This document shows, piece by piece, positions 1 through 64,000 of a stretch of DNA of 64,000 bases. Every line of letters starts with the position of its first letter. The stretch's first letter is position 1. A program made the translations under genes and the position numbers. Source of the stretch: a virus; IMG/VR virus record IMGVR_UViG_3300049927_000163, positions 1-64,000 of that record. One strand, written 5' to 3'. The notes beneath the pieces were generated by a model that did not search any database, was not told the origin of the DNA, and saw only the letters and a list, made by a program, of their open reading frames with translations.

Positions 1-127
1 TACTGACAAGAACTTGCCCGCTTGTGCCTAAACCTGACACGTTTTGCAATGCACTTGTGCTAGTAGTTCCGCCAGTTAAAACAGAATATGCCGTAAAGCT
101 TGCATCACCAGTACCACCTTGTGGAAC
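1..127 (+). repeat. Exact 127-bp direct repeat, copy 1
   Basis: Base-by-base identical to 38504..38630; first mismatch at position 128/38631. Confidence 0.95.
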
Positions 128-169
128 AGTAACAGGATTACTTGTGTTCGTTGCATTATTTGTTGCCAT
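1..169 (-). CDS. Tail fibre/receptor-binding protein, 5' part (truncated by window edge)
   Basis: Translates as MATNNATNTSNPVTVPQGGTGDASFTAYSVLTGG..., matching the N-terminus of 38046..38672. Confidence 0.85.
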   Translation of the reverse strand, partial: MATNNATNTSNPVTVPQGGTGDASFTAYSVLTGGTTSTSALQNVSGLGTSGQVLVS

Positions 170-175
170 AAAGCC

Positions 176-631
176 TTAAACCACTGTTATGTTTCTTTCT
201 TCTTCCGCATGACATTTCGGGCAAAGTGTTATCAGATTATCAAGATCATAAGCTTTTGAACTGTCAATCCTTAATGGTATAATGTGATGAATATGCAACT
301 TTTTATTGTATGCCAGACATTTCTTGCATTTATATCCATCACGTTCCAAAACTTTTAGTCTACATTTTTTGGCTTTTGTGCTCTTGTAGTTTTTTCTTAC
401 CTCTAGAGCTCTTAAATCACCTTTACCATCTATATAATTATGAGGTTTATGACCCTTAAGAAATCCATTATCAGGTCGGTGACCTTTTTTATATCTACCG
501 GTATTTTCTTTTCCTGTAGCAGGTTGAAATCTCAGATTATGGCATTTCTTACATCTATGTCTACGCCAATTTTCAATTTTATGAAATTCTGTTATTTCTT
601 TTTCTATATCACAATCAATACATTTCCTCAT
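176..631 (-). CDS. HNH endonuclease (McrA/HNH-like) with N-terminal Zn-finger and KKGHxPxN-type repeats; putative free-standing homing endonuclease
   Basis: VLERDGYKCKKC...LHIHHIIP...DLDNLITLCPKCH motif; absent at the syntenic site in B. Confidence 0.85.
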   Translation of the reverse strand: MRKCIDCDIEKEITEFHKIENWRRHRCKKCHNLRFQPATGKENTGRYKKGHRPDNGFLKGHKPHNYIDGKGDLRALEVRKNYKSTKAKKCRLKVLERDGYKCKKCLAYNKKLHIHHIIPLRIDSSKAYDLDNLITLCPKCHAEEERNITVV

Positions 632-686
632 GATAACCTCATTTTGTTATCATGATTTTACTTAACAGTAATATTACCTTCCACAA

Positions 687-1982
687 CTAAACTACGGTCA
701 CATTTCCAATCGATCCATACACCTGCCAGACTGAAGATGAACCACCAGTTACGCATACTAATTGCAAGGAATCTCTTATGGCAGTAGATGCAAGTGATCC
801 ACCTGTTCCGGCTGTTGTAGAGCTAGTGCCGAAGAAGATTTGTTGCGAAGCATTCTGAGCTATCTTCCAGCCTAGAGCAATGTTAATACCAGTCACATTG
901 AATAAGTCACCAGCGGTAGATGATGCAGGTAAAGTAAGAGTTAGCAATGTGCCCTTATTACAGATATATCCATGACTTGCAACAACAGATTGATCCGCAG
1001 TAATCACCGACCAAGTTAGGCCACCTGCTGCTGGAGCAGCACTTGTCCAATTCGTTCCGTCACTTGTCATGACATTGCCGGATGTTGAAGGCACTGCATA
1101 GGTTTCTGTTGAAGCAACCCAATTCGTTCCATCGGACACGATAATTTTACGTGTTGTCGCGCTCGCATTGGGGAACGTTGGGGTCGAAGCAACCCAATTC
1201 GTTCCGTCCGCCACTAAGACCTTTGATGTGCCTGTGGCGACTGAGGGGTATGTTGCGGTCGAAAAACTTGGCGCTGCTGAGGCATTGGATTGTAATACGT
1301 TACCTGTTGTGCCTGGCCCTGCTAGAATAGAAGGCACTCCAGTATTGCTAGTAACAAGCATACCGTTATTTGCAGTTGCTAGGCCACCTACTACGCTTGT
1401 TGCAGAGGAGTATAGTATCTGACTGACAGTAGTAGTAGCCGGATATGTTGCAGTTGTAGCTACCCAGTTAGTTCCGTCAGCACGAAGGATTGTTCCAGTA
1501 CCTGTTGCTATTGCTGGATAGGTTGCTGTTGAATAAGCTGGATCTGCTGAAGCACCACCTGACTGGAGCACTTGTCCTGCTGAACCGGCTGCTGTTGCAA
1601 CTATGGCACTTGTAGCTTGACCAATGACTACGCCATGGTTAGTGAGGGTAGTTGCAGAAGGAGGTCCAGAGACGTTGATTGTAGCAGTTCCTCCAAGAGA
1701 TACTGGAGAACCTGACACTGATACGTTAGTGCCGTTAGAAAGCGTAATTTGGCCAGATCCTGGAAGGGCTCCAGCTGGGATTGCTCCAAAAGAGGGATCT
1801 CCACCTGTGTTTCCATTTAGAACTTGATTAGTTAAACCTGCTGTAAGAGAAGTAATGCCATTACCTGTTGAACCAATAAGAACAGCATGATTAGTAACGG
1901 GCAATCCGGAAAAAGTGGAAATACCGTTAAAACGCATTATGCCGGCAGTAGTAAGATTTAAGCTATTGGCTGGTATTCCCAT
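687..1982 (-). CDS. Tail fibre protein (DGTNW repeats, C-terminal trimer knob)
   Basis: G/T/S/A-rich; repeated GQVLQS..P.(Y/F)STATYP and DGTNW motifs; C-terminal GYICNKGTLLTLTLP. Confidence 0.75.
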   Translation of the reverse strand: MGIPANSLNLTTAGIMRFNGISTFSGLPVTNHAVLIGSTGNGITSLTAGLTNQVLNGNTGGDPSFGAIPAGALPGSGQITLSNGTNVSVSGSPVSLGGTATINVSGPPSATTLTNHGVVIGQATSAIVATAAGSAGQVLQSGGASADPAYSTATYPAIATGTGTILRADGTNWVATTATYPATTTVSQILYSSATSVVGGLATANNGMLVTSNTGVPSILAGPGTTGNVLQSNASAAPSFSTATYPSVATGTSKVLVADGTNWVASTPTFPNASATTRKIIVSDGTNWVASTETYAVPSTSGNVMTSDGTNWTSAAPAAGGLTWSVITADQSVVASHGYICNKGTLLTLTLPASSTAGDLFNVTGINIALGWKIAQNASQQIFFGTSSTTAGTGGSLASTAIRDSLQLVCVTGGSSSVWQVYGSIGNVTVV

Positions 1983-1997
1983 ATTTACGTAAGTCCT

Positions 1998-2486
1998 TTA
2001 CATTAAGAGCCATGTAGCATCTGCTTCGAGGGCCCACCAAGTTGATGAAGCTTCTCGGTAAACTAATATTAAATTATCTCCAAGGGCTGTACTTGTGGCT
2101 GTGCCACCAACCGAAGAAGATTCAGCACCGATCGCAATAAACTGTGTCGCATCTGCTTGAACTATTACAGAACCTGCTGTATCACAGATAATGCTCACTG
2201 TCTGGCCTTGGGTTGCACCACCTGGCAAAGTCACAGTTAAAGCCGCAGTACAAAAGTACCCTTCATTGACTGTTGCTGAAAAATCGGCTGCTTCATCGGT
2301 CCAGTTCATGATTCCGGATGTAGCTACTATGGTAACAGTATTTCCAGAACCAGAAGTACTAACTGCACCAGAACCAAAAATATTCAAGGTGCTTAATGAT
2401 GAAACCGCAGTACCTGAATTCGTGACAAAGTTGATTGGTACGTTTACCGGCACATTTCCTGTTACTGCTATTGAATAGCCTGACAT
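1998..2486 (-). CDS. Short tail fibre-associated protein
   Basis: C-terminal GYFCTAALTVTLP domain paralogous to the end of 687..1982; ortholog at 39990..40478. Confidence 0.6.
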   Translation of the reverse strand: MSGYSIAVTGNVPVNVPINFVTNSGTAVSSLSTLNIFGSGAVSTSGSGNTVTIVATSGIMNWTDEAADFSATVNEGYFCTAALTVTLPGGATQGQTVSIICDTAGSVIVQADATQFIAIGAESSSVGGTATSTALGDNLILVYREASSTWWALEADATWLLM

Positions 2487-2489
2487 GAA

Positions 2490-2837
2490 TCAACTCGCGT
2501 AGAAGGTTGATAAGTACACTGATCCCGTAGATGCAACGCCTCTAGCATAAAACTGCGTCTTTGCTACCGTCGCAAGGATAGCATTGGACACAGCGTTAGC
2601 TGTTTCATCCAAGGCAAAACCTGCTCCAGGCAAAAGAACAACATGGTCATCTACTCCATTCCAAGAAATAAATACGTTTACGCCAGTGTTGTTGACGAAG
2701 AGGAGTACTCTTGATGGATTGGTAATTGGCGATGCCACAAGACTTGCATTTAGAAAAGGCATGTAGGAGCCTGTGAATGAAGCACTATTTATGCTTCTCA
2801 TTGGCTCTGGTAGTAATCGATCGCTGTAATCAGGCAT
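2490..2837 (-). CDS. Small virion structural protein (beta-sandwich-like)
   Basis: Lies in the tail operon; ortholog at 40482..40829. Confidence 0.5.
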   Translation of the reverse strand: MPDYSDRLLPEPMRSINSASFTGSYMPFLNASLVASPITNPSRVLLFVNNTGVNVFISWNGVDDHVVLLPGAGFALDETANAVSNAILATVAKTQFYARGVASTGSVYLSTFYAS

Positions 2838-2849
2838 ATAATTTCCCTT

Positions 2850-2871
2850 AAAAAAGGGGGATTTCTCCCCC
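2850..2871 (-). terminator. Intrinsic terminator (GGGGGA-GAAA-TCCCCC-T6) after the long tail fibre gene
   Basis: Perfect hairpin with GNRA loop and U-tract; identical copy at 40842..40863. Confidence 0.75.
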
Positions 2872-2876
2872 TATTA

Positions 2877-5066
2877 TTAATTTTGTCTTACGATGAAATA
2901 AGCATATGTAGATACATCGCCCGTTTGCGTCGAACCAGGCGTGCCCACAATCAGTGATGTGACAGTAAAGCTTGTCGCATTGATGATTGTGTATGATAAC
3001 TCACCAAGTGTTGTAGATGCCGCTACACCAATTCTCTGTAGGAATATCCTATCAGCAGTTGCAATGTTTGTATTAGCGATTGTCTGAGTACCAGCAGTTA
3101 GAACACCTGTACCGATAAAGTCAGTTACTGCACCGCCATTCAATTGGAGCTGAGTAGCTACGTTACCTAGGATTAGGTTACCGTTTACAGTTGCACCACC
3201 TGAACCTGTGTTCAAGACAAGGGCTGTTGCGCCTGTTATGTTACCAATTGTGATTGTTCTAGCCGCAGCACCTGTACCAATGTTAATTGCTTGAGCAACA
3301 GCATTGTTACCAACGTTAATCGCAGCTGCTGAGCTATTAAGGCTTAGAGCACCAACTGCATCAACTGTTACAGCCGCACCACCTGATACTGCAATAGCAC
3401 CTGATAGAGCATTACCAATTGTTACTGTTCCTGTGGATGTACCTGAGTTAATCGCTGTGTTAGAGTTTTGGCTAGCGTTGATACTTGCTACGCCTAAGAT
3501 ATTCACTGTTGTTGCGCCATCAGCGTTACCAACTGTCATCGTCTTAGTACCAGTACCAGTCAGAACGTTCAGGGCCATTGTACCAGCAGCTCTATTGCCA
3601 GTAGCAATTGCTGTGGTATGTGTACCTGAAGTTACAGCACCTGTAGCGATGTTAGTAAGCACTTGGCCTAGGGTTACACCACCTGAGTTAACATTGACTG
3701 TTTTTACACTGTTTGCGTTGGTTGTAGCACCGCCTGTACCTAAGTTCAAAGTATCAGTTACAGCAGCTACAACAATTGTTCCACCGGAAACTGTAGTTGT
3801 ACGCGAAGCAGCAGGAGCAATATTGCAAAGATCTGCAGTAGTTACACGAGTATTATTACCGATTGCAAGGACACCCGCACCCGCAGTACCAATACCTGAC
3901 ATGATGTTTACTGTTGTATTACCAACAGACGCACCGTTTGAAATACTGACCGTTTGAGTAGAAGTGTTTATGCCATTGCCAATTAGGATGGTATTTCCAT
4001 CGATACCATTACCGATATTAATAGCTTTTGTACCATTGCCAGTAGCTGCGTTCAGAGTGATAGTTCCAGAAGCGGCATTGCCTGATAGAATGTTGACAGT
4101 TGAATCACCAGCAGAGGCACCAGCTGCAATATTGACTACTTGCGCACCAGTATTGACAGCGTTACCAATGTTGATAGTCTGACCAGAAGCTGAAGTACTA
4201 CGACCTAGAGTGATTGTTCCAGTTCCGACAGCGCCACCTAGAGTAATGGTACCAGAGGTCATCGCATTACCGATTGTCACTGAACCTGTAGTTTGTGTGT
4301 TGCCTATTACGATGGTGTTGGCTCCAGAGCCTCCAACTGTGATTACACGGGCAGTTGTACCGATTGCCAGGTTAACTGCGGCTGCATCATTATCGGAACC
4401 AAGGCCTAAAGTTGTGCCAGCAGTTTTGATATTGGCTGATGCATTGAATGTCGCAAGACCTGAAAAAGTTGTAGCTCCTGCAATTGAAAGCGCGTCATCT
4501 AAAACAACTGCGCCTGTCACATCTAAAGTGCCAGGAAGATCAAGACTATTTGACCAGATTGGATCAGCAGCAGATTGTCCGATTAAAACCTGGTTAGTTG
4601 AACCTACAGCAGTTGGAGTCACTACACCAGTTCCAGAACCAAGCATGATACCATGGTCTGTGATAGTTGTAAGACCGGTTCCCCCTTCAGAAACATCAAG
4701 TGCGGTGGAGAAAACAAGAGTTGTAGCAGTAAGAGTAGTGAATGTACCAGCACCTGGAGTAGTCGTTCCAATATCGCCCGGAGCGGCCATAATTGAAGGC
4801 AGGTTTGATGGTACTAGAGCAAGATTAGTAGCAACTTGTGCAGCGGCTTCGCCATTGGTAGCAATTTCGATCAATCCAGGAACAGTAGTAGAGGCTAAAA
4901 CTCCCCCAGAGAGCGCCACTTGGCTAAGACCATAAGGTGTTACAGCTATTTCTCTATAGTTAGCTGGATTTGGTGTAACTGTTTCTGCGGCAGTTGCAAA
5001 ACGGGTAATTCCAACGGTTTGTTCACTCGCTGGAACTGCACCAAGATAGGAAAGTGGTGAAGACAT
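2877..5066 (-). CDS. Long tail fibre/tailspike (beta-helix-like INIG/VTIG repeats)
   Basis: 729 aa, G/T/N/A-rich periodic repeats; N-terminal ASEQTVGITRFAT / ASTTVPGLIEIAT fibre repeats. Confidence 0.75.
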   Translation of the reverse strand: MSSPLSYLGAVPASEQTVGITRFATAAETVTPNPANYREIAVTPYGLSQVALSGGVLASTTVPGLIEIATNGEAAAQVATNLALVPSNLPSIMAAPGDIGTTTPGAGTFTTLTATTLVFSTALDVSEGGTGLTTITDHGIMLGSGTGVVTPTAVGSTNQVLIGQSAADPIWSNSLDLPGTLDVTGAVVLDDALSIAGATTFSGLATFNASANIKTAGTTLGLGSDNDAAAVNLAIGTTARVITVGGSGANTIVIGNTQTTGSVTIGNAMTSGTITLGGAVGTGTITLGRSTSASGQTINIGNAVNTGAQVVNIAAGASAGDSTVNILSGNAASGTITLNAATGNGTKAINIGNGIDGNTILIGNGINTSTQTVSISNGASVGNTTVNIMSGIGTAGAGVLAIGNNTRVTTADLCNIAPAASRTTTVSGGTIVVAAVTDTLNLGTGGATTNANSVKTVNVNSGGVTLGQVLTNIATGAVTSGTHTTAIATGNRAAGTMALNVLTGTGTKTMTVGNADGATTVNILGVASINASQNSNTAINSGTSTGTVTIGNALSGAIAVSGGAAVTVDAVGALSLNSSAAAINVGNNAVAQAINIGTGAAARTITIGNITGATALVLNTGSGGATVNGNLILGNVATQLQLNGGAVTDFIGTGVLTAGTQTIANTNIATADRIFLQRIGVAASTTLGELSYTIINATSFTVTSLIVGTPGSTQTGDVSTYAYFIVRQN

Positions 5067-5173: not shown

Positions 5174-5419
5174 ATGCAATGTGCTGAATGTAAAAATGAT
5201 ATGAATGATAAAAAAGATAAAAATCTTAGATTTTGCAGTAATATTTGCAAAAATCGGGCTATCAGTCGTTTAAAAAGAGGCGATCATAGACGTGTTTATA
5301 TGATCTGTAGAAACTGTGGAGAAAGATATATAGTGAAAATGTCACAGAAGAATAAGACTAAATATTGCTCTAGAAAGTGTCAGGGAGTGATTTTAGGTAA
5401 AGGAAATAAAAAATGTTGA
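5174..5419 (+). CDS. Small Zn-finger protein (CxxC ... FCS..C repeats)
   Basis: Paired CxxC/CSxxC motifs; ortholog at 43161..43400 shares RGDH. Confidence 0.6.
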   Translation: MQCAECKNDMNDKKDKNLRFCSNICKNRAISRLKRGDHRRVYMICRNCGERYIVKMSQKNKTKYCSRKCQGVILGKGNKKC

Positions 5420-5475: not shown

Positions 5476-6159
5476 TTGGGCACATTCATAGATTTAACTG
5501 GTAAAATTTTCGGAAAATTAACTGTTTTAGAGAGATGTGGATATACAGGAAAAAACCATATAACTTGGCAATGCCAATGTGAATGTGGAAATAAAAAAAT
5601 TATATGTGGTACAGAACTAAGATCTGGAGACACTAAAAGTTGTGGTTGCTTGCTTTATAAAAAAACTTCAATAGAAGAAAAAGATAATCATACTATAAAA
5701 GTTCTTAAAGAAAATGTTAAAAAAAACGAAAAAACTGGATGTTTTGAATGGAATATGGGATTAAATCATAATGGATATGGATCAGTAAATTATCGAGGTA
5801 AGACAAAACTTGCACATAGAGTAAATTGGATACTAAATAAAGGAGAAATTCCAAAAGGAATGCATGTTTTGCATAAATGTGATAATCCTCGTTGCATATG
5901 TCTAGACCATCTCTTTTTGGGAAGTCATGCCGATAATATGCATGATATGGCTAAAAAACAAAGACATGGTAAAAATAATCATAAAGGTCAAAATCACTAC
6001 AGAACAAAATTTACTGATGAACAGATCTATGATATTAGGAAAAAGTATAAAGAAGGTATAAAACCATATGAAATAGCTAAACTTTATAATAGTAGTTATT
6101 ATTCTATATATTTCGTTGTAACTAGACGTTCATGGAAACACCTAGATGACAAAAAATAA
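5476..6159 (+). CDS. HNH homing endonuclease (HNH_3 type, N-terminal DLTGKxFGKLTV/CxC domain, C-terminal HTH)
   Basis: AHRVNW...VLHKCDNPRC...HLFLGSHADNMHDM motif; AT-rich; absent in B. Confidence 0.85.
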   Translation: MGTFIDLTGKIFGKLTVLERCGYTGKNHITWQCQCECGNKKIICGTELRSGDTKSCGCLLYKKTSIEEKDNHTIKVLKENVKKNEKTGCFEWNMGLNHNGYGSVNYRGKTKLAHRVNWILNKGEIPKGMHVLHKCDNPRCICLDHLFLGSHADNMHDMAKKQRHGKNNHKGQNHYRTKFTDEQIYDIRKKYKEGIKPYEIAKLYNSSYYSIYFVVTRRSWKHLDDKK

Positions 6160-9422: not shown

Positions 9423-10181
9423 CTAAGATTGTAAACCCTGATTGACTGCATTACCTGTTTGAACGCCTATAGGAACACCTGCTGGTCCACCAGTTACACC
9501 ACCAACTACACCACCTGCTACAGGAAGTGCTATATTTGCAAATCTCTGGTAAGCGTTTGGACGAGGTGGAATTTGTCCTGCATTTTGAGATATAGTAGAT
9601 GCATTATTTCCAGCATTCGAAAGGTTTTGGTTAGCTCCTGATTGAGCATTGTATAAGTCACCAATAGTGTTATATTGCATTTGCTGTTGACGAGCGCGTT
9701 CTTCTTGAACTAGAGGAGCAAATTGAGCATTCAGGCCAAGATGTAGATTTGCACCTGCGGCAGCTAAGGCTTGGTTCAAGGCTGAAGAGGTTTTGCTTCC
9801 ACGGCCAAATTGATTCATGACATCAGGAAGTGTCTGCTGTTGGAAGTTAGCACGAGCATATTCAGCTACTGGATCAAAAACCTGTTTAGCTTGGTCATAG
9901 CCTTGCGTTCCTTGATAGGCCTTACCACCTACACCAAATTCACTTCGGAGTTGCTGGGATAGAGGATCTGTACCAGCTGCAAAGTCTTGAGTTCTCTGAA
10001 GTGCTTCTTTACGAAATGGAGCACCTTTCAAGTATTCTTTGGCGGCTTGTTTTTTTACCTTAAGATCTGCTTCTCTAGATGTATCTTTGTCGCCTTTAAG
10101 CTTTTTTATTAATTTTCCTGCTGCATTATAACCAAGACCAAATGTTGCAACCTTTCCTACTTTTTTACCTGCTTTTCCCAT
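9423..10181 (-). CDS. Putative pilot/ejection protein 1
   Basis: Q/A/G-rich with SSALNQALA and a C-terminal Gly-rich hydrophobic segment; homologous to 47320..48090. Confidence 0.6.
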   Translation of the reverse strand: MGKAGKKVGKVATFGLGYNAAGKLIKKLKGDKDTSREADLKVKKQAAKEYLKGAPFRKEALQRTQDFAAGTDPLSQQLRSEFGVGGKAYQGTQGYDQAKQVFDPVAEYARANFQQQTLPDVMNQFGRGSKTSSALNQALAAAGANLHLGLNAQFAPLVQEERARQQQMQYNTIGDLYNAQSGANQNLSNAGNNASTISQNAGQIPPRPNAYQRFANIALPVAGGVVGGVTGGPAGVPIGVQTGNAVNQGLQS

Positions 10182-10630
10182 TATTCCTCCTTGTATTCCA
10201 TGGCCACATCTTTACAGCGCTTGAAGCCGAGACGTTCATAGAATTTAGCGTTTGTAGTCATCCAGATAGTCGTTTTGACTTTCATTCTGTTAGCAATTAA
10301 TTTCACAAATTCCACAGCTTTCTTCATCGCTTCACCTTTTTTCCAGTAAATCTTATCGATAGAGAAGGTGTTTACAAACATGCTGTGATCAAGTGGGTTT
10401 AAATCCATCCAGAGGTAGCCAACTATTTCCTTATCTGGGTTAATCAAGGCGTATATTAAGCTAAAAGGATTCTCTTCGTCTACGCATTCTTGTGCATATT
10501 TGTAAAAGTCATCTACAGAGAATGCGCGGCCTTTTACTTGCTCAACAAGATGCCTGGGAATAAGTTCTGGGAGGAGCAGCTTCATGAAGGTGAGGTCTTC
10601 AAGTGTGTAGACTTTCTCTTCAGTCATCAT
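10181..10630 (-). CDS. GNAT-fold virion assembly protein
   Basis: IVGYLWM...FSIDKIYWKKGEA...KFYERLGF acetyltransferase-like motifs, at the typical podovirus position before ejection genes. Confidence 0.65.
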   Translation of the reverse strand: MMTEEKVYTLEDLTFMKLLLPELIPRHLVEQVKGRAFSVDDFYKYAQECVDEENPFSLIYALINPDKEIVGYLWMDLNPLDHSMFVNTFSIDKIYWKKGEAMKKAVEFVKLIANRMKVKTTIWMTTNAKFYERLGFKRCKDVAMEYKEE

Positions 10631-11067
10631 AGCTGAGTACCTACAATACGTATGTTGAAACCTGCTGTTATGCCAGCTCTATTATGTTTTATTTGGAAGT
10701 TTGTAGTAGTCGACGTGATAGTTAAGATATTGCCTGCCCAAGCACCAGTTCCAGCTTGGCTAGAGAGTAGGTTTACAACGCCTACAGCAGCATCAGATGA
10801 CTTGGTAAGTGCCCATACAGCTGTAGGTAGCGTTGACTCGATTCCTGAGACTAGAACCATAAAAGCACCGAATCTAGCAACATTAGGAATATCTGCAGCG
10901 GTATCTGATATTGGGATAGAGAATGCTGTAAAGTCTCTAGCATTTATATTAATGGCTATATCTTCATAAAGCCTTGTCAGATACTGTACAAAGGTCATTA
11001 TCTCTTGAGGCGATGGAACAATCGTGTCAGGAGATAAATAAGGTAGCTGAACATTGTTAAAACTCAT
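10627..11067 (-). CDS. Putative tail needle/plug protein
   Basis: Directly downstream of the nozzle gene; N-terminal helix YLTRLYEDIAININ similar to 48526..49074. Confidence 0.4.
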   Translation of the reverse strand: MSFNNVQLPYLSPDTIVPSPQEIMTFVQYLTRLYEDIAININARDFTAFSIPISDTAADIPNVARFGAFMVLVSGIESTLPTAVWALTKSSDAAVGVVNLLSSQAGTGAWAGNILTITSTTTNFQIKHNRAGITAGFNIRIVGTQL

Positions 11068-18931: not shown

Positions 18932-18932
18932 A

Positions 18933-46275: not shown

Positions 46276-46276
46276 T

Positions 46277-48529: not shown

Positions 48530-49074
48530 GTCTGATTCTCAAGCTCCTGACCAATATATTCCATATAACCTACAAATCCACCACCAGTAAAAGACACCAT
48601 TTGGATTGGATTCAAGCCAGAACCACACTCAAGGACTTTCCCTTTTATGGTGTTTGGCTGGCAATTCCAGACTAGATATGTATACCCCGCTGTAAAGACA
48701 TTATCGCTGCTATTAGACTGCATAACGCCAACCCAAGGCGTACCCTGGCTGTTAGCGGATTGATAAGGCATCTCAATAACAACATCGGCTGAAACAGAGA
48801 GAAACGACCAAGCAATATCCATCCAAACTTGAGTCATAATTCCTGATCGACGAGTCCAGCCATATTGTTTGGTGTATGTGACACTCGAATCGCTTACATT
48901 ATAAAGTTTTGGTGTCCAAGGTTTAATCCATCCATTTACATTCTGAGCAACTTGCTGGTATGTATCTGTCATTTTATCTATGAGGTCGCCCATATATTCT
49001 TTGAACTTTGCGGGGTTCTCATCTACAAAAGTCTCAGGTCGGTACGGGTATATTATATCAGTTGGAAGAGTCAT
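48526..49074 (-). CDS. Putative tail needle/plug protein (B)
   Basis: Syntenic with 10627..11067; different C-terminal domain. Confidence 0.45.
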   Translation of the reverse strand: MTLPTDIIYPYRPETFVDENPAKFKEYMGDLIDKMTDTYQQVAQNVNGWIKPWTPKLYNVSDSSVTYTKQYGWTRRSGIMTQVWMDIAWSFLSVSADVVIEMPYQSANSQGTPWVGVMQSNSSDNVFTAGYTYLVWNCQPNTIKGKVLECGSGLNPIQMVSFTGGGFVGYMEYIGQELENQT

Positions 49075-53627: not shown

Positions 53628-54569
53628 TTAAGAATGGGTTGCTTCAAGATTCAACATAAATGAGTCATTTAAAATTCTTGAAACGAATGGATGTTGCCAA
53701 CCTACCGTTCCACGTTGATGCAATGGGTCAGCTGAACCAGCGGAACCAAGTGGCTCAATATAGAATTCACCACTCTCTACACCAAGGTGTACGACGGCAT
53801 ATGCTTCTTTACCGATGATAAAGTTGTTGTACACTGGTATAGCAGCGCTAGAAACACTCCCTACACTAGTGTAAAGCCATCTTACGTTACCTGTACTTCC
53901 CCATTCTGCGTCCAGAACAGTCTGTTGGCTAGGATATTGTGCAGTATGAACAAAGTTCTCTACCTGCTCAAGATCATCCAAAAGTGCTGTATCAATATAG
54001 CCCCAAAAACTAGGACGAATTGGCGCAGTTCCGAACATATCCATACCGGTGATGACTTCTGAAATCATCTCCGCGTTATTTCCCAGAAGAGTTTTAACAG
54101 CAATATTGATATCAAGTTCATTAATCTCTGTTGGTGTGTTTCCGTTACCACCATTAGCACATTGAAGTACTGAAGATGTACTCGCAAGTACGTCTCTTGT
54201 AACTTCATCCATGGTCTGACCAAGGTTTTGTGCAAGTAGACGTGCAGATTCATTAAGCACTCTATCTTGTACTGTGAACTCGACTTGGTTTGTTAATGTA
54301 ACAAAGTTACCGTAGAAGTCTACACGAGCTTTTAGGTCTTGTGTACTTAAAGCAGTTCCTGGAGGTGTTATACCATCTGTTAATGGAATTGGAACGGTAG
54401 CTAATCTGTTATATCGTCTAAATACAATAGTGTCTCCCATCTTACGTGGTAACTGTCGACGCTGCGCAAACTTTGTATGAATAAGCTTAGGATAAGCTGT
54501 CATCAATAGCAGACGGTCGTAGTAATCACGCACAGCTGGAGGGAGAACGCTGACGTTTGTAATTGTCAT
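53628..54569 (-). CDS. Major capsid protein, N4-gp56 family (B)
   Basis: YYDRLLL...GDTIVFRRY...PLTDGITP...EWGSTGNVRW...GKEAY...DPLHQRGTVGW. Confidence 0.92.
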   Translation of the reverse strand: MTITNVSVLPPAVRDYYDRLLLMTAYPKLIHTKFAQRRQLPRKMGDTIVFRRYNRLATVPIPLTDGITPPGTALSTQDLKARVDFYGNFVTLTNQVEFTVQDRVLNESARLLAQNLGQTMDEVTRDVLASTSSVLQCANGGNGNTPTEINELDINIAVKTLLGNNAEMISEVITGMDMFGTAPIRPSFWGYIDTALLDDLEQVENFVHTAQYPSQQTVLDAEWGSTGNVRWLYTSVGSVSSAAIPVYNNFIIGKEAYAVVHLGVESGEFYIEPLGSAGSADPLHQRGTVGWQHPFVSRILNDSFMLNLEATHS

Positions 54570-54589: not shown

Positions 54590-55240
54590 TTAACCCATAT
54601 TCCTTGCAGCAAACTTCATGAAATCCGAATCGTTCATAGTCTTATATGCCTCTCCAGTAATACCAGACGTGGCACCTCCAATGGAGGAGAGATTCCCTGG
54701 TCTTTGCAAGTTTTGAGTAGCTTGCTGAGCCTGTGGAGATCGATTTTGTTGTCTTTGTTCTTGGAGATAAGTGTCTGAACGTTTTGCAAGATGATACGCC
54801 GCCTTATAAGGGTTGGGCGCACTCATGATCATTTCTTTAAGATCTGGGTCGGTTTTTAAAACATCCGGTAAATATTTTCTGACCACATCATTATAATCTG
54901 GGTATGCTTGAGCCATCTTCAGTTCTTCTACAGCGAGTTTTTGTTCGTGAGAAAATTGATTTATGAATTTCTTAGCTTCTCCGACAGTGAGCACGTCATT
55001 GTCAGATAAACCATTAAATTCATCAGGTGGTGCGGCTTTAGCGTTGTTAGCTTTCAGCAACTCCATGTGGTCTTGCATTAACTTCAGATTTTCTTGAAGT
55101 TGTTGGCGCTCGCGCCTTTCTGCTTGTAAAGCGGCTACTGGAACTAATTGTTCTTGTTGCTGCTCATGCATTGGCTGCTGAGTGTTAAGATCAGTCTGAA
55201 CGGCGGCTTCAGATGTAACGCCCGTCTGCATTGGTTCCAT
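54590..55240 (-). CDS. Scaffolding protein (B)
   Basis: VP..ALQAER.ERQ, YPDY..V, AY.LAK, RPG.LS, M.DSDF; start re-set to MEPMQTGV. Confidence 0.75.
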   Translation of the reverse strand: MEPMQTGVTSEAAVQTDLNTQQPMHEQQQEQLVPVAALQAERRERQQLQENLKLMQDHMELLKANNAKAAPPDEFNGLSDNDVLTVGEAKKFINQFSHEQKLAVEELKMAQAYPDYNDVVRKYLPDVLKTDPDLKEMIMSAPNPYKAAYHLAKRSDTYLQEQRQQNRSPQAQQATQNLQRPGNLSSIGGATSGITGEAYKTMNDSDFMKFAARNMG

Positions 55241-55296
55241 TTTGGCTCTCCTAATACGCCCTTTACTCGATGGCAATCGAGTGCGATGGCGGCTCG
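55195..55296 (-). promoter_or_regulatory. Structured scaffold leader: three hairpins plus two GGGCGT boxes
   Basis: TCTGAA-GCCGCCG-TTCAGA (55195..55213), ACTCGAT-TGCC-ATCGAGT (55265..55282), CGA-GCCGCCA-TCG (55284..55296). Confidence 0.7.
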
Positions 55297-55666: not shown

Positions 55667-55915
55667 CTAGAAATCGTATTCAAATGCTTCTTTAGGAGTG
55701 CCTCTATAATCATAAGGAAGTGCATTTACGCGCTTTCCATCATAATCAGGGCAAGGATCTACATAATAAGGCTTGGAAGCATGCCCCATAATGCCATCAC
55801 CCATAGAACCGGCCTTCTCAACGTTAAGATAACGTTCATTCATAGCCTTAGATGGGTAACGCGCATCAAGTTTTTCCTGCTCCGGAACCTTATTCATTTT
55901 TGGTTTACCTGGCAT
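55667..55915 (-). CDS. Hypothetical protein
   Basis: Overlaps the portal stop codon. Confidence 0.55.
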   Translation of the reverse strand: MPGKPKMNKVPEQEKLDARYPSKAMNERYLNVEKAGSMGDGIMGHASKPYYVDPCPDYDGKRVNALPYDYRGTPKEAFEYDF

Positions 55916-57929
55916 TGTTCACCTGTTTTGGTTGTGTTTGTTTATCGGCTTGTGCCGAGATTGCAACGTCTTCCGCTTTCATTTGTTGTTCTTGAGCACG
56001 GTTGACGCCTTCCAATGCCATAAAGACATCGAGAAGCTTTAAAACTCTATCATCGTCCATTGCGTCTAACTGTTTGATTGCCTGCATTCGTTTCAAATCG
56101 GCGTCAGATCGGTTATCAAGTGACTTCGATACTCTTTCGTCTTCTAGGCCGAGATTTGCAATAGCTCTTGTAAATCGTTCTTTTGCTGAAGCAATATTCG
56201 AAATAGATTGAGACTGGAATAGCTCGGATTGAACGCGGACCTTCTCCATCTCGACTTGAGTAACTTGCTGTTGCGCTTGCTGCTGCTGTTTGTTGAATTC
56301 TTCCATTGCCTGCATGTATTCAGTCTTACCTTGGAGAGGTGCAACTTTTGCAAGTAATCCAGGTGGAACTGGCTCGCCGATCTCTTTAAGAGCAAGAAGC
56401 TGGTTAAAGAACATCTGTTGTTGACTATTAGTGAGCACGCCTTCTTGAACGGCTATATCGTAGCGTAGGGCATCTAATTTAAAGATCTTTTCGTCAGGCT
56501 CTTCATTAATGATGCGCTTGATCTTTTGTTTAGACCAGGATTGCTGCATTTTCAGAATTTTCTTAGAGATACATTCTTGAGCAAAACGCATGTTATCAAA
56601 GATATCTTGCAGACCTACAAGCGCAGCTCCTTGACGAAGCATCACTTTAAGTCCAGAATCTTGCTCGGAATCCGCTTGGCCTAATAGTTCTTCCGAAATA
56701 TTCGCCACTTTCATAATATGTCCCTCAAACATGTTCTTCAATTCGAAGAAACTGGGGGGTATTTGAGCAGGCTGTATCTTTACTATTGCATCTGGTGCCA
56801 AACCTTTTTTCTTAAATATCGCTCTACCTTGAGATGTCTGATAGAGAGATCTTGGGTTGATAACGGCATCTTCTTCAGCAATCCAGCCAGAGTTAATTTG
56901 GCTCTGAACGAGGTCAAGCATCTGCGAGCTCATCTGATTAGTGATGCGCTGCGGATCTATCATAGTCCTAACGAGAGATTGAACCTTTAAAACGTAATCG
57001 TAGCTTTCAGGTTCGAAAACTCCGAAGAAAGGCACGAATGGGTATTCATTTAGACCATATGGATTTTTCTCAGACTTGATATATTCACTATTTACGATGA
57101 TGTGCTGGTAGACAAAGGGTTCTATTCGTTCGATAACCTCCATATTTGGATCAGCAAATAGGAAGTAGTCGGATTCTTCCCCTAGATATTCCATTGTCTC
57201 GCCAGTTAAAGCATTATATAGGAATTTCTTGGGTTCCCATCCTTGTTCCCAGAATTCATCATATGCCATCATCTTGCCACCGTTAGGCAACTGCTGATAA
57301 GGTAACCATGTGAATTTATCGTCTCTTTCCCATCCAACGTGGTAGAGCATATCTAAGTCTTTTTCCATGCCTGGAAGCAGTGATTTAACCATTGGAAGTG
57401 GTAGATACTTACGTCTTAAGATATTAGAACAATCCGACATGTCTTTTTTGGTAAAATATGGATCACAGATGAAGCCATTATACGGCTCTCGTGAACATTT
57501 TATTTGACCATCAAGTGGATCTGTTCTATAATCTTTCCATAAACTGAATAGGTTCCAACCTGTGATAAGGGCGCCCTTAAAACAGTCGGAAATCTGTTCG
57601 TACATATCTCCGTGCTGGAATGTATATAATAATAGTTTTGTCAGTTGGTCTGCTGCCCGTTGATCACTGGCTTCAATTGGTACGCACACTGACGAATGAC
57701 GATGTTTTTTCTGATATCCGGTTACCATGTTGATATTTGGTCGGATGAAATTATTTACATAGGTACTTCTACCATCTTGGAATATTGCTCTCTTTTCTTC
57801 TTCGTTCCACTGATCCCCGAGATACATTCTCAGATCACGATCGGCATAAGGAAAAAGAGGATTCCAAGCGTAATAATTCTTATAGTAGGCTTGATAGTAA
57901 TTGTTGACGATCTCTTGCCCGATCAGCAT
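55905..57929 (-). CDS. Portal protein (P22-like) (B)
   Basis: YLGDQW...N.IRP.INMV.GYQ...DPYF.KKD.SDC...DPQR..N...; homologous to 23345..25459. Confidence 0.9.
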   Translation of the reverse strand: MLIGQEIVNNYYQAYYKNYYAWNPLFPYADRDLRMYLGDQWNEEEKRAIFQDGRSTYVNNFIRPNINMVTGYQKKHRHSSVCVPIEASDQRAADQLTKLLLYTFQHGDMYEQISDCFKGALITGWNLFSLWKDYRTDPLDGQIKCSREPYNGFICDPYFTKKDMSDCSNILRRKYLPLPMVKSLLPGMEKDLDMLYHVGWERDDKFTWLPYQQLPNGGKMMAYDEFWEQGWEPKKFLYNALTGETMEYLGEESDYFLFADPNMEVIERIEPFVYQHIIVNSEYIKSEKNPYGLNEYPFVPFFGVFEPESYDYVLKVQSLVRTMIDPQRITNQMSSQMLDLVQSQINSGWIAEEDAVINPRSLYQTSQGRAIFKKKGLAPDAIVKIQPAQIPPSFFELKNMFEGHIMKVANISEELLGQADSEQDSGLKVMLRQGAALVGLQDIFDNMRFAQECISKKILKMQQSWSKQKIKRIINEEPDEKIFKLDALRYDIAVQEGVLTNSQQQMFFNQLLALKEIGEPVPPGLLAKVAPLQGKTEYMQAMEEFNKQQQQAQQQVTQVEMEKVRVQSELFQSQSISNIASAKERFTRAIANLGLEDERVSKSLDNRSDADLKRMQAIKQLDAMDDDRVLKLLDVFMALEGVNRAQEQQMKAEDVAISAQADKQTQPKQVNNAR

Positions 57930-58037: not shown

Positions 58038-58202
58038 CTAAATTAAACGTCTTAGTGAGTTCCCTGCGTCTTCATCTGTATAAAGTACATGATTGAGAAC
58101 ATCTTCTAATTGTTTTGCTATAATTTTATCCTTATCATTAAAGGGGATTATTTGCACTGTCTTTTTAGATGTATTGCCTATTGTTACCTTTATATCCGCC
58201 AT
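58038..58202 (-). CDS. Mini protein resembling a portal N-terminal segment
   Basis: TVQIIPFNDKDKIIAKQLEDVL vs portal SSVCVPIEASDQRAADQLTKLL. Confidence 0.4.
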   Translation of the reverse strand: MADIKVTIGNTSKKTVQIIPFNDKDKIIAKQLEDVLNHVLYTDEDAGNSLRRLI

Positions 58203-59454
58203 GAAATCCCTTACCATATGCTCGCTCCATTGCATTCGCATCCGCTTCCGTCATTCCACCCTGCATTCGATCGAAGAAGTGGGTATATAGTGCGTATCTC
58301 TGTGCATCGCAAGAATGGTCGTTCTGTTTGATGGGCTGGTCAATTCCACGCTTGCTTGCCCTTTCATCCCAAAGATATGTGCTGTATTCCTTAATGGAAT
58401 TCACACATGTTTTACATATCTTATATGTTCCGTTTGAAAGTAACTGTCCTTGAAAACGAATCCCTGGAATCACATCATTCTTTGCATCTAGTACATCCAC
58501 TACCCCGACTTTTCTCATCTCAACTTTGAAAGATAAAGCAGATGGGTCTATATAAATTGCCTTTACTGGATAACCAGATATAAAATCAATTAAATCTTTG
58601 GCGTAATCACTATCGCTTTTTTGTCTATTTTTTGCTTTTGAATCGTAATAGTATTCTTTCTCTAGCCAGATGTTTGGATATAGTCCAGAATTATACCCAA
58701 TGAGAGAGAAAACACAAGGGTTGCTAGTACCATAGTCAATACCGCAAATATAATAAGTAGCCGGTCCAGGAGGCTGCAGGATCGTGTGCAAGTCTTCCGT
58801 AAAAAAGTCATAAATAGCTCCTTCTGCTAATACCCATTTACCCTCGATATAGCGCTGATACCAGAGGCCAGAATATTCTTTTTTTAGGTTATTTTTGTAG
58901 TCTTCCCCAAGAGAGGGGTTATCTTCGATAGAGAACTTGAAGACCGCGATATCTCTTTCAGCCGCCTTGTCGATAAATTCGACCTTGAGCCAATGAAAAG
59001 GGGAATCTGGATTGGTCGAACCAAATAGTTTTGCTCCAGGTAACGATAACCTAGAAAAGAGCATTTTCGTAAAGTTCTCAGGTATGATCGTAACTTCGTC
59101 GAGAAGTGCGCCCACATATTCTGACCCACGGATCTTAGCTTCCGCTCTTTCGTCGTTTGCTCCAACAACATCTATTGTCCTTCCCCATAGTTTGATCTCA
59201 CCTTTACCAGAGAGATACTGTAAATCATCGCCAATCAGGTCATAGAGAGGTCGAACGATATTACGCTTAATAGTAGGCTCTGTTCTTCCACATACGATTA
59301 GAGGACCTTTAGGGCCATTCTGAATGAAATCTATCCAACGCCAGAAACAGGCATAGGATTTACCAGATCTAACAGGACCTTCCCAAATGTTAAGTCTCGC
59401 TGTGCTCTCCACTAGACTTCGCTTCTGTATCGGACTTAATATCTGCTTTAACAT
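58165..59454 (-). CDS. terL: Terminase large subunit, PBSX-like family (B)
   Basis: WEGPVRSGKS Walker A, LLDEVT, STNPDSP, GIDYGTSNP, NDHSCDAQRYA. Confidence 0.92.
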   Translation of the reverse strand: MLKQILSPIQKRSLVESTARLNIWEGPVRSGKSYACFWRWIDFIQNGPKGPLIVCGRTEPTIKRNIVRPLYDLIGDDLQYLSGKGEIKLWGRTIDVVGANDERAEAKIRGSEYVGALLDEVTIIPENFTKMLFSRLSLPGAKLFGSTNPDSPFHWLKVEFIDKAAERDIAVFKFSIEDNPSLGEDYKNNLKKEYSGLWYQRYIEGKWVLAEGAIYDFFTEDLHTILQPPGPATYYICGIDYGTSNPCVFSLIGYNSGLYPNIWLEKEYYYDSKAKNRQKSDSDYAKDLIDFISGYPVKAIYIDPSALSFKVEMRKVGVVDVLDAKNDVIPGIRFQGQLLSNGTYKICKTCVNSIKEYSTYLWDERASKRGIDQPIKQNDHSCDAQRYALYTHFFDRMQGGMTEADANAMERAYGKGFHGGYKGNNRQYI

Positions 59455-60445: not shown

Positions 60446-60624
60446 TCTCCCAAAGTGGGACCCTCTTCAGAATTTCCTAATTTAGTGTCAATTGATTCAT
60501 AAATAAACAATAAATTATTTCTTTCATCTTCGTATCCTTTTATATACCTATCTATTGTATCTAACCTATCTTTAATTTCTTTTATTACTGAATATGGATC
60601 TTGAGCTAAAAATATACCAGACAT
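60397..60624 (-). CDS. Hypothetical protein
   Basis: TAATG-coupled to the ParB-like gene. Confidence 0.45.
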   Translation of the reverse strand: MSGIFLAQDPYSVIKEIKDRLDTIDRYIKGYEDERNNLLFIYESIDTKLGNSEEGPTLGDWRKWLKYIKSKGEGK

Positions 60625-61163
60625 TATTTCTTTACCTTTGTTTTATATTTTCCAGGAAACTTAATAACATTTACGGCTTCGAGAAACAATCCAACATCCT
60701 CTACTTCTTCAAACTCAAAAATAACTTTAGGTATCTTGTCTTTTGGTAAAGGATCTTCGAAATCATCTGGATTAAATCCCCATTCACACAAAAGATTAGT
60801 ATCCCATTCATTGGCGAGTTTATCCCAATCCCAATCACCTGTATTTCTGTTCAGACGTATATTGAGTTCGTCTATCATTCGTTCATTAAAATCTCTATCC
60901 CCATCTATTACCCAGCATTCTATTTGTGTCCAGCCAAGTTCTTGACAAACCTTAACCCGTTGATGACCACCAATGATTATTCCGCCTTTAGTGATAATAG
61001 GCTTGTCTATAAGGCCAAACCTTATAATACTACGCCTAAGCTCTTTCTCCTCTTCCTTGCTCAAGTAACGAGGGTTCTTATGGTGAGAATTAAGATCGTC
61101 GATATCTCTAAGTTCAAGATGCCAAGTCGTTAAACTGACGTTTTCGTCTTGCATTTTTACCAC
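60624..61163 (-). CDS. ParB-like nuclease domain protein
   Basis: KNPR...LRRSI.RFGL..PII...IIGGHQRV...LNRNTGDWD. Confidence 0.85.
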   Translation of the reverse strand: MVKMQDENVSLTTWHLELRDIDDLNSHHKNPRYLSKEEEKELRRSIIRFGLIDKPIITKGGIIIGGHQRVKVCQELGWTQIECWVIDGDRDFNERMIDELNIRLNRNTGDWDWDKLANEWDTNLLCEWGFNPDDFEDPLPKDKIPKVIFEFEEVEDVGLFLEAVNVIKFPGKYKTKVKK

Positions 61164-62178: not shown

Positions 62179-62339
62179 ACAGCGCTCACAGGTACGGAAA
62201 TTTCAGGCGATATATTAGGCTCATTACTCTGTGTTTCATCTACCATATCAGCGGCTTCACCATGGGTATCTATCAGATTAAAGCTGAGTGTACACCCTGT
62301 TACCAAGAAGCATAAAATTATAATATTTGCTATTCTCAT
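62175..62339 (-). CDS. Small lipoprotein (B ortholog of 26102..26323; not in the ORF track)
   Basis: MRIANIIILCFLVTGCTLSFNLIDTHGEAADMVDETQSNEP; VTGC lipobox. Confidence 0.65.
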   Translation of the reverse strand: MRIANIIILCFLVTGCTLSFNLIDTHGEAADMVDETQSNEPNISPEISVPVSAV

Positions 62340-62418
62340 CTAAACCCCATGCCTAAGATCATTATACAAAGTATCGCTACAGTCAGTCTCTTCCACCACG
62401 CAATAGTCGCAATGACAT

Positions 62419-62721
62419 TTATCCTCGGCGGAAGCCGAATATCCGCATGAAACTGTCCCAAATACCAAAAGAATCGCTAACGATTGCATCATTTTTATCA
62501 TCCGTATTTGTAATATATTTTTGATAATCTCTACTCTCTTCTGATTGTAGCCATAGTTCATGCACTTGCATTGGGAAGGAAGTGTCGTGGAATATTTTCT
62601 TAATAGCAAACTCAGGGTGTCTAAGATTGAATACCCTTATCGACTGTGAAATAGGTAATGTATACCAGTCATCGCCTAAGGCCCAATGCATCTTAGCATC
62701 GTATTCATCTTTAAACTGCAT
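62419..62721 (-). CDS. Hypothetical protein
   Basis: ORF coupled to rusA. Confidence 0.45.
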   Translation of the reverse strand: MQFKDEYDAKMHWALGDDWYTLPISQSIRVFNLRHPEFAIKKIFHDTSFPMQVHELWLQSEESRDYQKYITNTDDKNDAIVSDSFGIWDSFMRIFGFRRG

Positions 62722-63454
62722 GCTTGCCCTCGTCTATTTCTTTTATAAGCTCTTGGCACAGCAATGATTCTTCTCGCACACATCCAAGTTTCTCTATTTT
62801 CTTTAAGATTGAAGTATATTTTAGAGAAAAATCACTCAGTCTGTGTGACACTTCTTTGAACCATGCATGCTTACTTTCATCACACAAATCGAAAATAACT
62901 CCATGTTTAAGACTAGATAAAGCTGAAGTGTTCGCCAAAAGGTCGTATAGCTCATCTGGAGAAAACATAGTAATAATCTTCTTTTCTTTCTCTGAAAGTT
63001 TAGGTACTTCTTTCACTTTAATTTCTATCTCCACTCTTGGATCATCGCTATAAAATTTATCTATCTCACCGCGTACAACTAAACAATCGTCTGCCCAAAT
63101 TACGTTATTTAAACAATCACAGTAAAACTTAGCTAGATTATCAAAATCAGGTTTGTTCGTGGCGAGTGTTAAGCCCCATAATTTAGCATTTCGTTCCCCT
63201 ATACTGTCGCTTTTATTTATTGGCAAGTAGAAAACAAAAGAAACAGTGAAAGCTTTACCTAAACAGACCTTACAAGCCTCTGTCGATATTCTTTTGTCAT
63301 CGGAATTTATTTGATCAGCTAGTGTAAATGTGAGTTGTTCTTTGACTTTATTCTTCTCTTTTTCTTGGGGATCATACGTGACTACGAATGAGCCACGTTT
63401 AGAATATCTAGCTCGGGCTTTCGGGATCGGATTGCCCTTTAAAATGATTTTCAT
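62711..63454 (-). CDS. rusA: RusA-family resolvase with C-terminal extension (B)
   Basis: G.PIPKARAR...YDP, KPDFDNLAKFY.D.LN.VIW.DD. Confidence 0.85.
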   Translation of the reverse strand: MKIILKGNPIPKARARYSKRGSFVVTYDPQEKEKNKVKEQLTFTLADQINSDDKRISTEACKVCLGKAFTVSFVFYLPINKSDSIGERNAKLWGLTLATNKPDFDNLAKFYCDCLNNVIWADDCLVVRGEIDKFYSDDPRVEIEIKVKEVPKLSEKEKKIITMFSPDELYDLLANTSALSSLKHGVIFDLCDESKHAWFKEVSHRLSDFSLKYTSILKKIEKLGCVREESLLCQELIKEIDEGKHAV

Positions 63455-63673
63455 AAAATTCCCAATGTTCGCCCAAGACGCGAAACAATTCTTCTCTTGG
63501 TACGTTGTTTTGTACACATGCCGAAATCATTAAATTTTCTGCAAGTAAAAAAACTTCCGAAGCACTTGGTTTATAAATATGAAGAACCTTATCTAAATCT
63601 TTCCTGATAGCGTCTAATCTTGGCTTTACATCTTCGTTAAAATGTTTCTATTTATCATACATAATCTCTCTCC

Positions 63674-63874
63674 TTAGGGTACAATTGGGTCTTCCCATTG
63701 ATGATCTATACATTCCTCTTCCTTTTCTTGTTCTAACACTCTTTCATACCAACCGGGTACTATAATACGATTAAATATTATTTTAGGTACATCCTCTCTT
63801 CTTCTATTGCTCTTTGAAATATTCTCTTCATCTTTGGCAGGTATATATGTAGGGGTTGTTCGTTCTTTACCCAT
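63674..63874 (-). CDS. Hypothetical protein
   Basis: ORF with GGAG SD. Confidence 0.4.
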   Translation of the reverse strand: MGKERTTPTYIPAKDEENISKSNRRREDVPKIIFNRIIVPGWYERVLEQEKEEECIDHQWEDPIVP

Positions 63875-64000
63875 AGCTGATCTCCGTGATAGTTATTCCA
63901 AGCCTCTTTATACTCGGATGGTTTATATGCATATGAGCTAGTCCCAAATGCCCACATATGGAAGCCTATGTCTTCAATCCAGGTGGTTTTACTTATGCTC

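Follow-up and report, generated by a model that had tools for sequence, protein, structure and literature searches.

The window analysed here comprises bases 1-64000 of the 73,512-bp IMG/VR record IMGVR_UViG_3300049927_000163, which extends past the window end and is listed in IMG/VR as linear and 100% complete. Its organisation can be read from a shared tail-fibre segment, termed S (36747-38630, minus strand), with a length of 1,884 nt. S is present as a single copy in the record, is common to the two arms on either side of it, and has its borders defined by exact matches at the head and at the tail of the record. The head match, R1 (1-127, no strand assigned), duplicates the final 127 nt of S and represents the k-mer vertex where the contig begins. 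An exact repeat 1-127 = 38504-38630 had been reported in the preliminary description and is indeed found; the sequences diverge at base 128, and the repeat is embedded in a 195-nt stretch with 97% identity. The same description had raised the question of whether the contig also ends in this 127-mer, which is not the case. Instead, the last 119 nt are an exact copy of 36747-36865, located within a stretch of 92% identity, so that the other record end matches the start of S over 119 nt as compared to 127 nt at the head. The layout is thus R1, A arm, S, B arm, start of S.

The A-specific arm (A', 128-36746, no strand assigned) has 36,619 nt and forms, together with S, a circle of 38,503 bp (phage A). 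The B-specific arm (B', 38631-64000 and on to record position 73393, no strand assigned) has 34,763 nt and, together with S, gives a circle of 36,647 bp (phage B). An earlier size estimate for A of about 38.5 kb is therefore accurate, and the earlier assumption of a join at a 127-mer can be refined: the shared piece is the 1,884-nt S, and the 127-mer is its last k-mer. The largest k of SPAdes is 127. At the head, the repeat has this assembler-k-like length and divergence is immediate, as is typical for a chimera, while the match at the tail, with its 119 nt, falls short of a clean k=127 vertex.

In phage A, the junction is directly adjoined by an HNH endonuclease gene (176-631, minus strand; PHROGs HNH families, 5.5e-18; Pfam HNH, 4.1e-10), for which the protein comparison of A and B revealed no counterpart in B. 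It is followed by a tail-fibre-like module of four genes (687-1982, 1998-2486, 2490-2837, 2877-5066), which lack a family match and are assigned by their likeness to the B module at 38679-43091. Further minus-strand genes are those for a GNAT acetyltransferase (10181-10630; Pfam Acetyltransf_1, 3.3e-5), a 774-aa protein named from its nozzle position only (11064-13388), an adaptor (14074-14991), which resembles the B gene 51755-52627 with its match to Pfam SU10_adaptor, the MCP (16570-17529; phrog_1357, 9.2e-39), a protein at the scaffold position (17544-18302), which also resembles its B counterpart (54590-55276), and the portal (23345-25459; Pfam P22_portal, 5.3e-82; phrog_156). TerL (27643-29142) and the small terminase (29132-29704), both on the minus strand, are assigned from phrog_2472, phrog_26724 and phrog_2, and the small terminase also matches Pfam GP3_package, the P22 gp3 packaging family. 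A cassette on the plus strand (21842-23148) carries a tRNA-Asn (22015-22087) and small phrog_924 paralogues. According to PHROGs, A codes in addition for Erf (32131-32823, minus), an exonuclease (33181-33837, minus), RusA (34794-35210, plus) and a ParB-like protein.

All B genes assigned within the window are on the minus strand. They start with a tail-fibre-like module assigned by its likeness to that of A (38679-39977, 39990-40478, 40482-40829, 40869-43091), the last gene of which shows a weak PDB sequence match to 'Gp12 short tail fibers' (E 3.5e-4). A Peptidase_S74 fibre-chaperone domain (Pfam) occurs in 47320-48090 and is followed by a GNAT-like gene (47996-48529; E 8e-32 to the A GNAT), by the nozzle-position gene (49074-51113), by the gene 51083-51739, and by the adaptor gene (51755-52627; Pfam SU10_adaptor, 1.3e-7). 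The MCP gene (53628-54569; phrog_1357, 2.5e-44; Pfam Phage_capsid_4), a gene at the scaffold position (54590-55276), the portal gene (55905-57929; Pfam P22_portal, 2.5e-71) and the TerL gene (58165-59454; phrog_2, 2.2e-48; Pfam Terminase_6N) complete the virion genes. From the early region, PHROGs identified ParB-like (60624-61163) and RusA-like (62711-63517) genes and, past the window at record positions 67098-72167, genes for DnaC-like, O-like, RecT and RecE proteins.

The virion genes are therefore present twice in the same order and on the same strand, as had been claimed from a first inspection, with TerL, portal and MCP resting on PHROGs and Pfam. Protein identity between A and B is 45% for the MCP, 35% for the portal, 35% for the adaptor, 28% for the scaffold, 34% for the GNAT proteins and 28% over 351 aa for the nozzle-position proteins. 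The two TerL proteins show no mutual BLASTP match, yet both match phrog_2. A claimed duplication of three ejection genes does not stand as named: these genes are positional only, with one weak match between 9423-10181 and 47320-48090 (39% over 49 aa). Duplication goes beyond the virion genes, as recombination and replication genes likewise occur in two sets (Erf, exonuclease, RusA and ParB-like in A; ParB, RusA, DnaC-like, O-like, RecT and RecE in B). Both portals are of the P22 type, with 276.6 bits (A) and 241.4 bits (B) against Pfam P22_portal at a gathering cut-off of 26.1.

A higher degree of similarity is found for two cassettes. The fibre modules 687-5066 and 38679-43091 share 69-93% identity at the protein level and, across 3,783 nt, 82% at the DNA level, and the tRNA-Asn cassette of A is 97-100% identical to record positions 64499-65775 of B, where it is found in inverted orientation. 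Outside the fibre region, this cassette of about 1.3 kb is the only DNA similarity detected between A and B, so that about 85% of the length of the two genomes cannot be aligned. The identical fibre cassette of 1.9 kb, its neighbours with 82% identity and the near-identical tRNA-Asn cassette point to a recent exchange of modules. The biology seen here is ordinary phage mosaicism, in which divergent podophages carry an identical fibre cassette and a near-identical tRNA-Asn cassette, and A and B probably have a common host.

The same comparison bears on the possibility that the record is a concatemer of one and the same genome, an artefact which CheckV flags by k-mer frequency and which that study reports for IMG/VR records (PMC8116208). 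The mean 21-mer frequency of the record is 1.009, not well above 1, and the core proteins of A and B are only 23-45% identical or unmatched. With k-mer frequency, DNA and protein comparison all speaking against it, this explanation is refuted for practical purposes.

S contains three tandem paralogues of about 205-213 aa (36782-37423, 37423-38040, 38046-38672; minus strand). Their products are probably small tail-fibre or receptor-binding proteins. Neither they nor the fibre genes have a PHROGs or Pfam match, even at E 0.05. Atlas neighbours of the S proteins are viral hypothetical proteins and unnamed viral clusters, and fibre-type families occur among them solely as leads scoring below 0.9. 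Further copies of S were sought in collections that may omit records of this genome and of very close ones. In metagenome_contigs, a 30-nt word taken from central S had 0 exact matches. The protein encoded at the S junction led to a single weak locus in viral_contigs, with 50% identity across 50 aa, and to 0 confirmed cases among 283 pattern matches in metagenome_contigs.

Sequencing depth was taken from Logan contigs (k=31) as per-contig k-mer means for a single public run, X1, which contains 0.96 of the junction words and is not necessarily the source sample. In X1, A-only contigs covering 28001-36776 show 0 differences and have depths of 37.9 (contig of 8,009 nt) and 45.5. For contigs specific to B, the depths are 9.36 (17,066 nt, 0 differences), 9.5 and 8.99, and those over 39732-40849 and 42315-48000 lie at 9.4-9.5, again with 0 differences. 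S is covered by a single contig of 1,952 nt with a depth of 52.7, which is roughly the depth of A plus that of B. The comparison of coverage proposed in the preliminary description thus reveals unequal values, about 38-45 for A and about 9.4 for B, a gap of approximately four-fold with the shared segment close to the sum. Equal depth, as predicted for a single genome with two modules, is not observed in this run. A mixture of free A and an A-B co-integrate would yield the same three depths as two free genomes. No contig was found with unique sequence on both flanks of S among these k=31 contigs, which break at the S borders.

In each of two further runs, X2 and X3, the share of junction words is 0.06, which is too little to demonstrate that the sequence occurs independently there. 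X2 has short contigs, mostly 90-95% alike and nearly all on A, with next to nothing on 40007-48000. Of the six short pieces from X3, five map to S or next to it, at a likeness of 92-99.6%.

The depth of S also bears on whether this segment belongs to both phages. It is conceivable that a chimera arose through the 127-mer alone, with S belonging solely to A and a diverged version from B residing on another contig, so that the B part of the record would be short by about 1.6 kb. The tail match of just 119 nt is below k=127 and lies inside the stretch of 92% identity, and B may diverge again after 36865, which is what such a scenario would predict. On the other hand, S is deeper than the A arms (37.9-45.5), and the excess is close to the depth of B. 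The depth summed over contigs in the central bin of S is that of the one contig, so that there is no separate B version of S at a likeness of at least 90%. In addition, the A arm stops at 36776 in the k=31 contigs while the S contig begins exactly at 36747, a branch point which coincides with the position where the B tail turns identical. We thus consider it unlikely that S is restricted to A.

Both halves of the record have relatives that exist on their own. With TerL of B as bait, 73 loci were found in IMG/VR; of these, 70 reach a TerL identity of 50% or more, and the longest of their records has 38,672 bp. Five B-type relatives were examined, with sizes of 34,865-38,672 bp; all five have a CheckV completeness of 100% and a single portal match, and direct terminal repeats are present in three. 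TerL of A was tried as sizing bait and rejected, as it led to only 2 loci (42-49% identity) on fragments without an A-type portal; the portal was used instead. With this bait, no relative having at least 57% identity to the A portal was found above 40.0 kb. Two A-type relatives, G011 (38,360 bp) and G012 (39,962 bp), the latter of which carries terminal repeats, have a CheckV completeness of 100% and one portal each. In both, an S-type gene is followed by a homologue of the HNH gene 176-631 and then by a homologue of the fibre gene 687-1982, which is the adjacency that A forms when it closes on itself. The terminal repeat of G012 is exactly 127 nt long. With 38,503 bp and 36,647 bp, A and B match these complete one-portal relatives of 34.9-40.0 kb, and gene order is colinear.

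These relatives have to be weighed against a genuine single molecule, in which phage B would, in all or part of its copies, be a co-integrate with A, formed by recombination across S. In this replicating circle of roughly 75,150 bp (S-A'-S-B'), the capsid, portal and terminase genes, and indeed the complete sets of virion and replication genes, would be present twice. It could be the sole form of B or a minority beside free A. Such a molecule is equally compatible with the geometry of the graph, the depths suit free A plus a co-integrate at about 9x, and an identical segment of 1.9 kb suits homologous recombination, for which Erf (A) and RecT/RecE (B) are recombinases. However, relatives of both halves are complete alone at 35-40 kb with one portal each, and none exceeds 38.7 kb at 50% or more TerL identity or 40.0 kb at 57% or more portal identity. 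According to the X1 depths, at most about a quarter of the A copies could be linked to B. Furthermore, a genome of 75 kb would presumably exceed capsids whose close MCP relatives, with 79-85% identity, package 35-40 kb. A co-integrate of about 75 kb is a needless assumption, and we consider its existence very improbable.

The reading preferred in the preliminary description, that two co-occurring phages were concatenated, gains support from the unequal depth and from the stand-alone relatives of 35-40 kb for each half. We are confident that the record is an assembly chimera of two related podophages with P22-type portals from one soil sample, which were joined via the identical S. As biology, a 'double-capsid genome' is not real. 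Phage A would be a circular or permuted genome of 38,503 bp and phage B a genome of 36,647 bp; we infer that headful packaging by both phages would let them assemble as circles. Assuming an assembler of the de Bruijn type with a k of 127, S would be one edge with two exits, the head of A and the head of B. The contig path would then start with the last 127-mer of S, lead round A, pass once through S, continue through B and halt where B re-enters the start of S. The end of B would represent a dead end 8 nt before the shared vertex, presumably caused by thin coverage of B, and this would account for the order of the walk (A, S, B). If kept as it is, the record would inflate statistics on genome size, gene content and clustering, and it should be split so that A (38,503 bp) and B (36,647 bp) stand as separate genomes.

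Chimeric contigs resulting from shared modules of mosaic phages are described in the Phables study (PMC10104058). As in the 'phage bubble' components described there, an identical unitig is common to two related genomes and cannot be phased, while depth separates the genomes. The Phables cases are variants with more than 95% ANI, whereas A and B are unalignable over most of their length, and it is for this reason that the contig resembles a single genome carrying two gene sets. The CheckV study (PMC8116208) states that terminal repeats of assembler k length indicate circular templates and that concatenated genomes are present in IMG/VR. Like the concatemers reported there, our case is an IMG/VR record of about twice the expected length which originates from metagenome assembly of circular templates. 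Those concatemers consist of the same genome at 2.0x to 6.8x, while two different genomes are joined here, and with a k-mer frequency close to 1 the usual concatemer flag would miss the record. With P22_portal in both halves, SU10_adaptor in B and a small terminase of the P22 gp3 family in A, the two phages resemble podophages with P22 portals and SU10 adaptors. The nearest cultured phages are distant, with best portal matches of 22-25% identity to podophages of about 61-65 kb that infect Pseudomonas, Burkholderia, Erwinia, Serratia or Klebsiella. Unlike these, the close relatives of A and B are uncultured records of 35-40 kb, and A and B are ordinary new members of this uncultured podophage group.

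The full record, a single IMG/VR virus record of 73,512 bp with zero N bases, is classed as linear and as 100% complete by CheckV; the window covers its bases 1-64000. Its first 127 nt (1-127, R1) are identical to the last 127 nt of a 1,884-nt segment, S, at 36747-38630. Between them lies the arm specific to phage genome A (128-36746, 36,619 nt), and S is followed by the arm specific to phage genome B (38631-73393, 34,763 nt) and the first 119 nt of S. Direct comparison agrees with the preliminary description that 1-127 and 38504-38630 are exact copies; the first mismatch occurs at base 128, and 97% identity persists to base 195. The same 127-mer, which was to be sought at the contig end, is absent there: the last 119 nt (73394-73512) are an exact copy of 36747-36865, within a 195-nt stretch of 92% identity. 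Closure sizes were computed as 38,503 bp for A and 36,647 bp for B via S. The longest exact inverted repeat has 116 nt, which is below k. A 134-nt exact direct repeat (2977-3110 and 40969-41102) is found between the fibre genes of A and B; being longer than k=127, it constitutes a second shared vertex in the assembly graph. It is short enough to be resolved by reads, and depth places 39732-40849 in B, so that this vertex was correctly resolved.

Gene calling yielded 128 proteins, and PHROGs and Pfam scans together with BLASTP of A versus B bear out the claim that nearly every structural gene occurs twice in the same order and strand: there are two colinear virion modules, both on the minus strand. 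The large terminase subunits (A 27643-29142, B 58165-59454) have no mutual BLASTP hit, and both match phrog_2. Protein identity is 35% for the portal (A 23345-25459, B 55905-57929; Pfam P22_portal in both), 28% at the scaffold position (A 17544-18302, B 54590-55276), 45% for the major capsid protein (MCP; A 16570-17529, B 53628-54569), 35% for the adaptor (A 14074-14991, B 51755-52627; the B copy matches SU10_adaptor), 28% at the nozzle position (A 11064-13388, B 49074-51113), 34% for GNAT (A 10181-10630, B 47996-48529) and 69-93% for four fibre-region genes (A 687-5066, B 38679-43091). For the proposed ejection genes, it is position alone that gives them this label. Pfam E1_FCCH (ubiquitin-activating enzyme FCCH domain) was matched above the gathering cut-off by a 236 aa protein adjoining the MCP in A (15857-16567) and by the C-terminal part of the B nozzle-position protein; these matches probably represent a small beta-domain serving as virion decoration.

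Among the non-virion genes, PHROGs identified Erf, exonuclease, RusA, ParB-like and RNA ligase proteins in A, and ParB-like, RusA, phosphoesterase, DnaC-like, O-like, RecT and RecE proteins in B. The duplication thus extends past the virion genes, and each half is a full phage genome. In A, a plus-strand block of about 4.5 kb (18786-23232) separates the portal gene from the head genes; it contains a ParB-like gene (19619-20365) and, beside tRNA and phrog_924 genes, an RNA ligase gene (21177-21848). The A-type relative G012 has about 460 nt at this site and keeps the ParB-like homologue among its early genes; in G011, also A-type, a homologue of 20387-20683 lies near the block position. A second cassette common to A and B (97-100% identity) is inverted relative to the virion genes and occupies 21842-23148 in A (plus-strand genes) and 64499-65775 of the record in B (2499-3775 of L004, minus-strand genes). 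It contains a tRNA-Asn(GTT) (A 22015-22087, B 64545-64617) along with genes for two to three small phrog_924 paralogues, and pieces of the cassette are rearranged between A and B.

S itself carries three paralogous genes in tandem (36782-38672), whose products have 205-213 aa. The third (38046-38672) crosses the junction; the residues it begins with are of B type at 38631-38672 and of A type at 128-169. The paralogues have in common the N-terminus MATNNA..PQGG.G..SFTAY and a YGG(T/S)NVF motif; profile scans matched no Pfam or PHROG family, and the closest Atlas clusters are unnamed viral proteins. HNH endonuclease genes flank the fibre module of A on both sides (176-631, 5174-5419, 5476-6159). 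B is without the two larger ones; only for the small ORF 5174-5419 does it have a homologue (43161-43400, 45% identity). Identity between A and B is highest (100%) in S, immediately adjoining the 176-631 insertion, and one may speculate about homing-type co-conversion between co-infecting phages.

The public soil run with the most junction words, X1, accounts for a 0.96 share of the words sampled from 33601-43600 and may be the source sample of the record. Its Logan contigs were compared over 28001-48000; depths are per-contig k-mer means from this one run, and S is not phased by the contigs. The A arm has depths of 45.5 and 37.9, the B arm 9.5, 8.99 and 9.36; the contigs at 37.9 (8,009 nt) and 9.36 (17,066 nt) match without a single difference. 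S is represented by one 1,952-nt contig (36747-38698) with a depth of 52.7, about the sum of the A and B depths. Its six differences from the window (38631, 38634, 38646, 38647, 38652 and 38667) are at the positions where the A and B heads differ, so the contig continues into the A head in X1. With the A-arm contig reaching to 36776 and the S contig beginning at 36747, there is a k=31 branch point exactly where the B tail turns identical; B-tail letters occur in another contig, which has its loose end at 36692. Since the summed depth in the middle bin of S comes from a single contig, no separate B version of S is seen in X1, and searches of metagenome and viral contigs found no second contig with S. 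A version of the chimera in which only A possesses S, and B is incomplete, is very unlikely.

The largest k of SPAdes is 127, and JGI assemblies use this value. In the most likely course of assembly, S would be a single edge of the graph, with one exit into the A head and another into the B head. The B tail ends 8 nt before the first 127-mer common with A, and since B has low depth, the small number of B-specific 127-mers that connect it to S may be absent. B would thereby become a long dead end, leaving A as the sole entry into S. A walk starting at the last 127-mer of S, round A, across S and through the unused exit into B would give exactly this record, and such a dead-end edge could account for a tail repeat of 119 nt rather than 127 nt.

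Stand-alone relatives exist for both halves. The B TerL retrieved 73 IMG/VR loci, 70 with at least 50% identity, and the longest record among these has 38,672 bp; larger sizes (40,946 and 49,634 bp) occur in two records, both at 41% identity. All five B-type records examined (34,865-38,672 bp) are 100% complete by CheckV with one portal match each, and three have direct terminal repeats. The A portal retrieved 12 loci, nine at 57-68% identity; G012 (39,962 bp, with terminal repeats) and G011 (38,360 bp) are both 100% complete by CheckV and have one portal each. By tblastn with all 128 proteins, four whole relatives have single, colinear gene sets, with the B order in G001 and G002 and the A order in G011 and G012. 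In the latter two, an S-type gene is followed by the homologue of the HNH gene 176-631 and then by that of the fibre gene 687-1982, an adjacency which arises in this record only when A is closed. Cultured phages are only distant relatives: podophages with genomes of about 61-65 kb have 22-25% identity in the portal.

A co-integrate, S-A'-S-B' on a single molecule of 75,150 bp with A' and B' as the specific arms, would also hold all four junctions (S to A head, S to B head, A to S and B to S), and free A plus a co-integrate at B depth also fits the three depths. We consider it hardly credible, given complete stand-alone relatives of 35-40 kb for both halves and no longer close relative; moreover, MCPs 79-85% identical to those of A and B occur in 35-40 kb genomes, so that 75 kb should not be packageable. 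The double-module genome that had been offered as an alternative is judged not to be a real feature. Geometry, the unequal depth with S at the sum, and the stand-alone relatives support the originally preferred reading of two co-occurring, concatenated phages, and the record should be split in two.

The terminal repeats of G012 (exactly 127 nt) and G001 (123 nt) are of lengths which the CheckV article, in its treatment of such repeats, reads as assembler k-mers from circular templates (PMC8116208). The same article, where it deals with IMG/VR contigs far above the expected length, attributes them to repetition of one genome. The present record differs in that two different genomes are joined (mean 21-mer frequency 1.009 over the whole record). 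The Phables article describes, in the part concerned with mosaic phages, unitigs that such phages share and chimeric contigs that result from repeats (PMC10104058).
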